Assembly: GCF_057098645.1 (NCBI RefSeq)
Contig: NZ_CM169472.1
Length of the DNA: 64,000 nucleotides
Strand: one strand, 5' to 3'
The position numbers were made by a program. The number at the start of each line of letters is the position of its first letter. Position 1 is the first letter of the stretch. Of the stretch, positions 1 through 3,000 are shown piece by piece.

Positions 1-3000
1 TTCAGGTCAGGGTTTTCCCGCGCTAGTAATCTGGCGTACCTGCGAATATAGTCCAGCTCTTCCCGGTAGTAATCTTCTCCAGATGTCATAATATAACTCC
101 AGTGAATGTATGTGGTTTATATTATCTGATTCTGTACCTGAGAAATAATATTTCAGCCACAACAGGTTATCACAGAGTCAGAAGAACGGATGAACTGTTC
201 CGGTATTATTTTTACGGAATGATTAATCTGTAAATTTATGGCTTGACAATACGCTTTAGTGGAGGATGATTCCATTAATTAACCTAACGTCTGGTGATAA
301 CAAATAAGTCAGCCAAGTAACAAACAAATTACATTCTCACAAATACACTGACATTTGGTTTCCCCTGGCGAAATTTTTGTTGAGGGTATATTTATGTCAC
401 AGGCAGGTCTTCGGTTTACTGTTGATGTGGATGGTCAGCCCACTGAAACCTTTGCCGTCACTCGCTTTCACCTCTCGCAATCCTACTTCTCTCTGTTTAC
501 GCTGGAAATTAATACGGTCAGTGAACGGACCACCCTGAAAGCCAGTACACTACTGGAACAGACGGCACAATTAACTATCTGGCAGGGCAGCACACCGTTA
601 CGCTATGTGACAGGACTGATCGCCGGATTTGAACGCGGTGAATATGACGGGCGAAAAACCAGCTACAGCCTGACGGTTCGCCCCCCGCTCTGGCGCAGCA
701 GCCTACGGCAGAATTTTCGTCATTTTCAGCAGCAGGATATCCAGAGCATTATTCAGCGGCTGCTTGATGATAACCGGGTGGGAGATACAGCATACCTGTT
801 CGATGAAATGCATCCTGCGCGGGAGTTTTGCGTGCAGTACGGCGAAACCGACTATGAGTTTCTCTGCCGACTGATTGCAGAGGAAGGCATCTTTTTTTAT
901 GAGGAACATGCCCAAAAAGGCTCCCGGCAAAAGCTGGTATTTTGTGATCGCGTGGTCTGCCTGCCGGAGGCATTTCCTGTCCCCTTCAATCCGCAGCCCC
1001 GCGGCACATTCACCGAGTGTATCAACCGCTTTCGTTACAGCGCACAGATCCGCCCGGCTTATGTCATCACCAAAGATTACTCCTTTAAAGCCCCCCACTG
1101 GCAGGCCCGTTACCGTAATGATGCACCCGGTCTCAACGGGCAGCGCAACCAGTATGAAAAGCTGGATTACCCGGGCCGTTTCAAGGATGAACAACATGGA
1201 AAGGATTTTGTCCGCTATCAGACAGAGGGATGGCGCAACGATGCTGAAACGGCATCTGGGAGCAGTAATTCGCCAAAGCTGTGGCCGGGAGCACGTTTTA
1301 CACTGACTGAGCACCCTGCCGATGATCTGAACCGGGACTGGCAGGTAGTGGCAAGTGAACTGCATGGCGAACAACCGCAGGCCTCACCGGGAACACATAA
1401 AGAAGGTACCACGCTGGTAAATGAATTTCAGGCGATACCCGCAGATAAAACCTGGCGCTCTTCACCGCTACCCAAACCGAAAGTGGATGGTCCGCAGCCA
1501 GCGGTAGTCACCGGACCAGAGGGGGAGGAAATTTTTTGCGACGAACATGGTCGGGTAAGAGTTAAATTTTTGTGGGATCGCTATCACAAAGCGAATGAAG
1601 ACAGTTCATGCTGGATACGGGTGTCTCAGCCGTGGGCTGGTGCGGGTTTTGGTCATCTGGCTGTCCCACGAGTGGGTCAGGAGGTGATCGTGGACTTCCT
1701 GAACGGTGATCCGGATCAGCCGATTATCGTCGGGCGAACCTATCATCACGATAACCGCTCGCCAGGAAACCTGCCACTAACCAGAACACAAACAACGATT
1801 CGCTCAAAAACATATAAAGGGAACGGGTTTAATGAACTGCGGTTTGAAGATATGACCGGGCAGGAAGAGGTTTATATTCATGCGCAGAAGGATATGAATC
1901 ATGTTATCAACCATGATCGCACCAGCCTGACCAAACGGCATTCTGTGGACAAGGTACAGGGTAACAGTGCTGTCCTGGTGGATGAAAGCCAGGTGATGCA
2001 GGTTGGTGGCACTCAAAATACCAGTATTGGCGGAGACTATGTTTTGTCGGTAGGTAATCATTTTACGGATGGCTACCGTAAAATGAATCTGGCAGCTTTC
2101 CAGGATGATGCCGCCACCCTGTTGAAACAATCGGCATTTTTAGTCGGTGCTAACGGCATCATGCCTGGTATGGGAAACATGACCACTTTTGTACAGGGAA
2201 GTAGAACGGAACATATTAATCTGACAGACACCAGTTCAGTAATTGGTGCAAAACTGATCAATGCCGGAGAAATGATTTCAATCAGTGCCGGAACATTACT
2301 GAGTCTGACTTCTGGAGAGAATAGCAAGGAAACATGTGGTGGCGTAAAAATAATCCAGGCAGTTGATGGAATAGAATTACATACGGGAATGGCCTCTTTG
2401 ACATTAAGAAACAATGGTCATATAGAGATCAAAGGAATAAAAGTTACGATAGAAGGCAGTGATGATGTGACAGTAAAAACACAGGCTCTTAACATTCAAA
2501 GTGAATAACATAATGAAAAAAAGTTATTATTTATATTATTTGTGATTTTACTTATTGAGACTGGGATGCGGTTTACAATATGGAGGGAACTTAATAACAT
2601 CATTCCCACTGCGAAAGATTACAGGTTTGATATAATGGTATATGATCGCATTGACACTGGTTTTATGGGGTGTATTGGACATCATAAGGAGAACTACCTT
2701 ACTATCTCTTATACATTATGGTTAGCAAAAGATGTGCTATGGGCTGATATTATTTGTCAAAACAGAAGTGAATATGTGCGCATATTCACTCAGACGAATG
2801 AAAGATATAGAGCAAAAGATAATAGAGCTTTTGTGTATTATCACTGGAGTTTCAAGCACTGGACCTTTATCGATTCATATCGTGAACAACAGGAGAAAAT
2901 TAATGGCAAACATATACAGTCAGACAAATAGTGATGGTAAATTAGAAAAATGGACCCTTCGGCTAATAGTGTCAGCAGGAGAACACCCCTTACCTAAAAT

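Follow-up and report, generated by a model that had tools for sequence, protein, structure and literature searches.

The window analysed here, a stretch of 64,000 nucleotides from contig NZ_CM169472.1 of the NCBI RefSeq assembly GCF_057098645.1, opens within the first codons of tssF, a gene for a baseplate wedge protein of a type VI secretion system (T6SS), which is divergent from a vgrG gene and its cargo. These genes very probably form a spike-plus-wedge cassette inserted at the tRNA-Asn gene asnT, with no T6SS core cluster beside it, which belongs to a lineage of single origin and is stranded in Escherichia coli O145:H28. The original prediction had recognized the TssF-like gene start and had proposed that, if this identity was correct, vgrG and its cargo would not be an orphan island but would close off, on the right, a complete T6SS locus. 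The gene proved to be what it was taken for; the complete locus did not materialize.

Read on the minus strand from 89 to 1, the window holds an ATG at 89-87 followed by 28 sense codons without a stop, and the translation (MTSGEDYYREELDYIRRYARLLARENPDL) is exactly the N-terminus that had been quoted; a Shine-Dalgarno sequence, GGAG, stands at 100-97 on the same strand, 7 nt 5' of the ATG. These 29 residues alone are not diagnostic of TssF. Their alignment to TssF family profiles, which had been suggested as a check, scores 14.2 bits (E=0.016, cut-off 25) for the Pfam family T6SS_TssF and 15.7 bits (E=0.005, cut-off 260) for TIGR03359 of NCBIfam, both below threshold, and the unrelated family PhyR_sigma2 matches the same residues equally well (E=0.004), although both TssF matches fall in the right place, covering profile positions 6-29 and 2-26, at the extreme N-terminal end. 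The identity of the gene as tssF is established by the full-length open reading frame (ORF) in identical genomes. Some 25 complete E. coli genomes match window positions 1-2600 at 100% identity, and another four at 90-95%; in the genomes identical to the window start the ORF runs to 619 aa and gives an intact TssF, the whole gene being 1,860 nt long with its remainder left of the window. The 619-aa protein is TssF from end to end, with 344.9 bits for PF05947 (cut-off 25) over profile positions 7-607 of 608 and 430.5 bits for TIGR03359 (cut-off 260.3), and it shares the N-terminal motif YYREELDY[IL]R with the TssF proteins of complete clusters. By these profile matches the 89 bases are confirmed, far beyond chance, as the genuine start of an intact tssF, an ordinary gene already annotated as such in RefSeq. 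Directly downstream, with an overlap of 37 nt, lies an intact tssG (353 aa; TIGR03347, 313.5 bits). The two genes are co-organized in 97% of T6SS clusters, and tssE is linked to tssF in 87% of them (PMC4604203). Here tssE, a usual but not a defining companion of the family, is not upstream of tssF, where the divergent intergenic region and vgrG are found.

The left context was read from four annotated genomes of identical or near-identical sequence, RM9872, Z1323HEC0422, FWSEC0002 and AHM8C212RI, the last being a non-O145 chicken isolate. Leftward, all four give tssF, tssG, a gene for a 153-aa protein of no family, an HTH_35/SfsB-like gene, a HigA-like gene and a frameshifted integrase, then a 99-aa ORF (without annotation in AHM8C212RI), a 420-aa P4-type integrase, tRNA-Asn (asnT), mtfA and tRNA-Ser, beyond which lies a lambdoid prophage in the three O145-type genomes and chromosomal backbone in AHM8C212RI. 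Apart from the rest of tssF and tssG, the annotation of FWSEC0002 contains no T6SS gene in the 33.7 kb left of the window start. The sheath genes tssB and tssC are missing from the annotated left flanks of the four genomes and from the reference region that matches the rest of the window, and tssE, tssK, tssJ, tssL, tssM, tssA, clpV and hcp are likewise absent from the annotated neighbourhoods of the four. The right-hand reference region is chromosomal backbone, with yeeJ (disrupted by an insertion sequence, IS), yeeL, shiA, amn, asn tRNAs, cbl, nac and cob genes, followed by CP4-44 remnants, the his operon, and wzzB/ugd at the start of the O-antigen region; the direct comparison of the window with reference genomes extends to 16 kb, and beyond this point the correspondence is one of matching ORF sizes.

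A complete core cluster (tssA-M) to the left, with vgrG and its cargo as its right-hand end, would agree with a tssF that is real and of a kind usually housed in complete clusters, the closest complete relatives having the order hcp, then tssB-C-E-F-G-fha-J-K-L-clpV-vasI-A-M. Against this stand the four relatives, in which tssF-tssG is followed only by island genes, integrases, asnT and mtfA, out to 33.7 kb, the distance of only about 13.7 kb from asnT to the right border of the island, the lack of any detected tssC in O145 chromosomes, and the published absence of the OI-7 T6SS from O145:H28. Sequence comparison refutes such a cluster for every sequenced relative, and we give it a vanishingly small probability. 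What stands of the original prediction is that the gene is tssF and that it is transcribed divergently from the gene to its right, across a 304-bp intergenic region; beyond tssG no core gene follows within 30 kb, which is one of the two outcomes that had been named as refuting it, and the locus is an orphan island after all, though unusually one with tssF-tssG.

The segment tssG-tssF / vgrG-cargo-PAAR is part of an island of about 13.7 kb integrated at asnT, as follows from the P4-type integrase, a 21-bp att repeat and the existence of empty sites: in E. coli genomes that have no tssF-vgrG segment, the match to the window begins at 4998, with tRNA-Asn directly adjacent. The T6SS part of the island comprises tssG, tssF and vgrG together with a PAAR gene and two cargo ORFs, and the features that lie within the window are the following:

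1 to 89, minus strand: 5' end of tssF (codons 1-29), from the translation and from 100% identical DNA elsewhere that gives a full-length TssF.
90 to 393, no strand: AT-rich intergenic region of 304 bp between the divergent tssF and vgrG, holding the tssF Shine-Dalgarno sequence and promoter-like hexamers on both strands.
394 to 2508, plus strand: vgrG (tssI), the T6SS spike, 704 aa (TIGR03361, 587.7 bits; domains Phage_GPD, Phage_base_V and Gp5_trimer_C).
2513 to 2931, plus strand: small cargo ORF directly 3' of vgrG, from alignment and translation; 139 aa in RM9872.
2903 to 4171, plus strand: low-GC gene for a 422-aa cargo protein of unassigned family, annotated as a hypothetical protein and, from its position, a putative effector.
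4250 to 4531, plus strand: PAAR-domain protein of 93 aa, the spike tip (PF05488, 59.1 bits).
4998 to 5018, plus strand: attR, the 21-bp direct repeat of the asnT 3' end (ccagtcagaggagccaaattc) and right border of the island; the same 21-mer ends tRNA-Asn.

Among 5,426 complete genomes of E. coli, 29 carry the island, in each case on the chromosome. Its carriers are mostly Shiga-toxin producers of serotype O145:H28 or O145:NM, and the best match to the window over 16 kb is the O145:NM strain FWSEC0002; the 25 or so O145 carriers are one clone, and the 29 carriers represent only some 6-7 independent lineages. Other asnT islands with a P4-type integrase, such as the Yersinia high-pathogenicity island in E. 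coli (PMC10562709), have the same tRNA-Asn target, and in them too a P4-type tyrosine integrase adjoins the tRNA and the far border is marked by a direct repeat of the tRNA 3' end. The present island differs from the Yersinia high-pathogenicity island in its cargo, in its size of only 13.7 kb and in a second, decayed integrase of the PF12834/PF12835 type.

A secretion machine that the island could serve was sought elsewhere on the chromosomes by sensitive blastn with a chimeric query that joined island tssF (1.3 kb) to tssC of Sakai and of CFT073 (0.9 kb each), the presence of tssC being read from the number of matching places per record; the search covers chromosome records and is silent on plasmids. 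In 26 of the 29 island-bearing chromosomes, every O145 strain included, the island was the only match and neither the Sakai- nor the CFT073-type tssC was present, while three carriers (AHM8C212RI, AHM8C160RI and E7-1N7) had one extra match. Queried with Sakai tssC alone, none of the 29 carriers gave a second match, as against 2,260 of 5,397 other genomes (42%); the three exceptions thus carry the distant CFT073/metV-type system. The zero co-occurrence with Sakai-type tssC could, with about 6-7 independent lineages, be due to chance, or else to incompatibility or replacement. At the aspV site of O145:H28 RM13514, where O157:H7 Sakai has its complete T6SS (OI-7), only hcp and a gene fragment lie in the interval from aspV to yafV (L013 19216-19865), and this hcp remnant is evidence that the O145:H28 lineage lost its T6SS by deletion. 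A partial T6SS gene count for O145:H28 has already been published: the serotype has been described as being without OI-7 (PMC5567499), and as having homologues of only 5 out of 22 genes of T6SS-2, with T6SS-1 and T6SS-3 unrepresented (PMC9144400), five being exactly the T6SS genes seen here in O145:H28, namely tssF, tssG, vgrG, the PAAR gene and hcp. Neither a sheath gene nor a main T6SS for the island to serve was detected in O145:H28. A tssF beside vgrG does not, then, imply a complete T6SS, and the island genes give no ground for crediting O145:H28 with T6SS activity.

The same arrangement recurs across Enterobacteriaceae. Among the TssF matches with at least 55% identity to the window TssF (P0001-P0015), the closest are from Escherichia sp. 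MOD1-EC7003 (91%), Salmonella houtenae (74%) and an Enterobacter (71%), followed by another E. coli site, close to gltX (60-62%), by S. salamae (59-60%) and by a contig from a gut metagenome (57-58%). All of these relatives have tssF facing a vgrG with variable cargo behind it, and all but Enterobacter have tssG. The cargo at this position in the sister cassettes is an Rhs protein, a DUF4123 protein with uncharacterized proteins, or small uncharacterized proteins, with 112-aa duplicates among the cargo observed, and PAAR is encoded in all but the two cassettes of Rhs type (S. houtenae, gut metagenome contig). In the flanks examined around the sister tssF genes, up to 10 kb on each side and less on short contigs, no further core gene was seen or called. 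The sister cassettes occupy different chromosomal sites, often beside an integrase of about 290 aa of the PF12834/PF12835 type, which accompanies most of them (S. houtenae, the gltX site of E. coli and probably Escherichia sp. MOD1). A scan of genome contigs with TssF found one locus only, that of Escherichia sp. MOD1-EC7003, and a tblastn search of plasmids gave no TssF of the cassette clade (best match 48%, some records being mislabelled chromosomes). Only two complete E. coli genomes carry the gltX-type sister cassette, and although both have tssC, two are too few for inference. Some sister cassettes are decaying (loci L005 11824-12881, L006 and L008 11860-11901): two S. houtenae records have tssG split into two ORFs or uncalled, and in the Enterobacter locus, where tssG is absent, tssF abuts a sensor kinase gene.

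By contrast with these relatives, the TssFs at 50% identity or below sit in complete clusters of the order given above (Citrobacter and metagenomic contigs), and OI-7 of O157 Sakai has essentially the same order. The window protein is comparable with TssF (VasA/ImpG) of the vas/imp-type T6SS of Enterobacteriaceae (ECs_0229 of Sakai OI-7; Citrobacter freundii): it matches the family over its full length, is 48% identical to the Sakai and C. freundii proteins, and has the same N-terminal motif, the same conservation pattern and an overlapping tssG next to it. Unlike the vas/imp-type genes, however, window tssF has no tssE, tssC or tssB before it and no fha, tssJ or tssK after it, and starts at a divergent promoter region; its protein also falls in a separate clade. 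A neighbour-joining tree unites P0001-P0015 in a single clade, which has a long stem and the Sakai/Citrobacter group as its sister, and all six genomic contexts sampled within this clade are cassettes. Judged by tree and gene context, the window TssF belongs to a distinct monophyletic lineage that is found only in minimal cassettes. In the history that we propose, one cluster of the O157 OI-7/Citrobacter type would have been reduced to the two arms beside the divergent promoter, and the resulting cassette would then have spread among Escherichia, Salmonella and Enterobacter by integrase-mediated insertion. A single reduction followed by spread is the simplest history and the most likely one.

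The genes of the cassettes appear to be maintained. There are no internal stops in any tssF or vgrG examined, or in tssG of the six intact cassettes analysed, and the ratio of nonsynonymous to synonymous substitution rates (dN/dS, Nei-Gojobori) among cassettes is 0.11-0.22 for tssF, 0.11-0.26 for tssG and 0.06-0.20 for vgrG, complete clusters giving similar ratios (tssF 0.06-0.17, tssG 0.09-0.29); the proportion of nonsynonymous differences (pN) is consistently a quarter to a third of the synonymous one (pS). Conservation per site of TssF in the cassette clade correlates with that in complete clusters (Spearman 0.53), and residues 1-90 and 450-600 are the most conserved regions in both groups. 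Such substitution patterns indicate that TssF, TssG and the VgrG core of the cassette clade are under purifying selection. The identity of the VgrG core (residues 1-560) tracks that of TssF, being 69-96% within the cassettes and 55-66% to the VgrGs of complete clusters, and the VgrG tail (561-704) swaps with the type of cargo. In the comparison of tails (loci L007 7702-9780, L022 7560-9638 and L020 19862-22003), the two from Rhs-carrying cassettes (S. houtenae, gut metagenome contig) share 93% identity and are 69-72% identical to the tail of the O157 Sakai VgrG, whose gene is also 5' of an Rhs gene, the cores being only 65-78% identical. These alignments show that tail and cargo are exchanged as a module between cassettes and complete clusters.

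Biochemical work offers a rationale for the gene content. In enteroaggregative E. coli, TssF and TssG are mutually stabilizing, and they have to be in complex for VgrG and TssK to be bound (PMC4604203). It is the inner TssF whose central domain touches the OB-fold of VgrG, assembly of the wedge is nucleated by VgrG, and the helical stem at the N-terminus of (TssF)2-TssG makes contact with TssC, TssE being a further expected partner of the stem (PMC6300606). Codons 1-29, those inside the window, encode the start of this TssF stem in solved baseplates. The cassette is a self-contained spike plus wedge unit of TssF, TssG, VgrG, PAAR and cargo; VgrG, PAAR and cargo with the two wedge proteins that dock on VgrG are physically coherent, because the TssF-TssG complex is what binds VgrG. 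The island has no sheath, tube, TssE, TssK, membrane complex, ClpV or TssA. If expressed where a compatible T6SS is resident, the cassette would supply a load of VgrG, PAAR and effector together with the matching wedge subunits; in O145:H28 it would be unable to fire, stranded though still intact.

Several points weigh against this reading. The window ends at codon 29 of tssF, the left context comes from relatives and not from the window's own strain, and no listed genome has the IS positions of the window. Some cassette copies are decaying, as seen in tssG of S. houtenae and Enterobacter and in the frameshifted O145 integrase. Intact ORFs in about 25 clonal O145 genomes say little on selection in that host, and since dS is saturated, dN/dS is rough; it also sums over all of the genes' past, in which a period older than the cassette may be included. 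The tssC search would miss a very divergent third type of T6SS. Use in trans is without direct support in E. coli, where none of the 29 carriers has the Sakai-type T6SS, the one most closely related to the cassette, and only 3 of 29 have a CFT073-type tssC.

Two other accounts of the locus have to be weighed with these points. The genes might be the wreck of a complete T6SS that decayed by deletions at asnT in O145:H28 itself, with neither a history nor a function as a cassette. Partial T6SS clusters produced by deletion are indeed common (E. bugandensis i2-iii, PMC10763514), O145:H28 did lose the T6SS at aspV, with hcp left behind, and the second integrase of the island is a pseudogene. Yet decay in place is hard to reconcile with the same minimal set of genes and the same tssF/vgrG junction at other sites in several species, beside integrases, with cassette TssFs that form one clade apart from all sampled TssFs of complete clusters, with a pN far below pS and a site-wise constraint that matches functional TssF, or with att repeats that bound a 13.7-kb unit for which empty asnT sites exist, and we consider it improbable. 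The absence of tssC from 26 of 29 carriers and of the closest T6SS type from all 29, in genomes whose cassette ORFs are intact and whose cassette clade is under purifying selection despite the missing tssC, could instead point to a role independent of T6SS, for example a TssF-TssG-VgrG-PAAR subcomplex kept for a non-contractile function. However, the N-terminal stem of TssF, with its TssC contact and expected TssE binding, is among the most conserved parts of the protein, which argues for the usual partners, the Rhs or DUF4123 cargo of sister cassettes is classical T6SS cargo, and the E. coli sample amounts to only some 6-7 independent lineages. We know of no precedent for such a role in a cassette, and it seems to us even less probable than decay in place. 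The spike-plus-wedge cassette of single origin therefore remains by far the preferred account.

Orphan vgrG or auxiliary T6SS modules, of which the Aux clusters of Vibrio cholerae are an example, are the known systems closest in kind to the island. Such modules consist of one or more of the genes hcp, vgrG and PAAR with effector cargo (PMC13098142), and the island resembles them in having vgrG, low-GC cargo and PAAR outside a main cluster, in being a mobile element, and in a VgrG C-terminal tail that co-varies with cargo. Unlike them, it also carries two structural wedge genes, tssF and tssG, and no main T6SS was detected in O145:H28; no description of an orphan vgrG module with tssF/tssG was found in the searchable literature. 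Incomplete clusters such as T6SS i2-iii of E. bugandensis, which is without TssEFG, VgrG and TssJM (PMC10763514), and T6SS-3 of Pantoea ananatis, which has only icmF/dotU (PMC3942780), are like the cassette in that a conserved subset of the core is unable to build a machine alone. The cassette holds a roughly complementary subset (wedge plus spike), is associated with integrases at several sites and is monophyletic across genera, not a strain-specific deletion. What is new here is an orphan vgrG module with tssF-tssG, forming a clade of its own and, from the substitution data, under purifying selection across genera, which is modestly unusual. The family shows that the wedge subunits TssF and TssG can move together with VgrG, linked to it and maintained by selection, in keeping with the binding of VgrG by the TssF-TssG complex.

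A broader and much more tentative proposal, which we hold to be rather doubtful at present, is that the cassettes are unrecognized mobile T6SS accessory elements that bring their own wedge for a foreign spike and its toxins, or, less likely, that they encode a sheath-independent subcomplex. As plug-in elements, they would carry a wedge of their own because resident TssF and TssG would not fit the foreign VgrG; a sheath-independent role of TssF-TssG-VgrG-PAAR would explain their persistence in E. coli without T6SS. If the cassettes do work in trans, they would provide a natural system for studying the compatibility of spike and wedge between T6SSs and the movement of effector repertoires between strains.

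Within the intergenic region (90-393), a promoter scan gave 4 sites where 1.2 were expected, including two predicted promoter-like sites, TTGACA-16-GATGAT at 243-270 on the plus strand, that of vgrG, and GTGATA-17-TATTAT at 173-145 on the minus strand. TTGACA (243-248), GATGAT (265-270) and the tssF Shine-Dalgarno sequence are kept in the cassettes of Escherichia sp. MOD1, Enterobacter and S. houtenae, and we infer a promoter role for the conserved hexamers; the more distant cassettes have little intergenic sequence in common with the window. Inspection by eye found no convincing sigma-54 promoter in 90-393, no formal scan for sigma-54 having been made.

The gene at 394-2508 is annotated as tssI in all matching genomes. 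The cargo region that follows (window 2500-4500) has a GC content of 33-38%, as against 50-55% for tssF, tssG and the vgrG core, and neither the small cargo ORF nor the 422-aa cargo protein has a Pfam or NCBIfam match; effectors occupy the position of the latter in related cassettes. The small ORF starts with ATG-A8 in RM9872, where it gives an intact 139-aa protein with a hydrophobic N-terminus (MKKKLLFILFVILLIETG...), and with ATG-A7 in the window and in Z1323HEC0422 (A tract at 2516-2522), which places the start codon out of frame, a polymorphism in homopolymer length that is predicted to switch the first cargo gene on or off. The PAAR protein of the window is 84% identical to that of the Enterobacter cassette.

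The 153-aa protein encoded next to tssG is conserved beside an HTH_35 gene in islands (L001 16408-16869, L010 13212-13673 and L006 20436-20897) and has no family match; in Salmonella its ORF adjoins a P4-type integrase, not tssG, and the protein probably belongs to the integrative backbone and is not a T6SS part. To the right of the island, the inverse-autotransporter adhesin gene yeeJ (window 5252-14640) is split by an IS3-family element at about 8186-9399. Other O145 strains have the same IS elsewhere in yeeJ, near the yeeJ 5' end or, in FWSEC0002, at the vgrG 3' end, and these differing positions imply repeated independent insertions.

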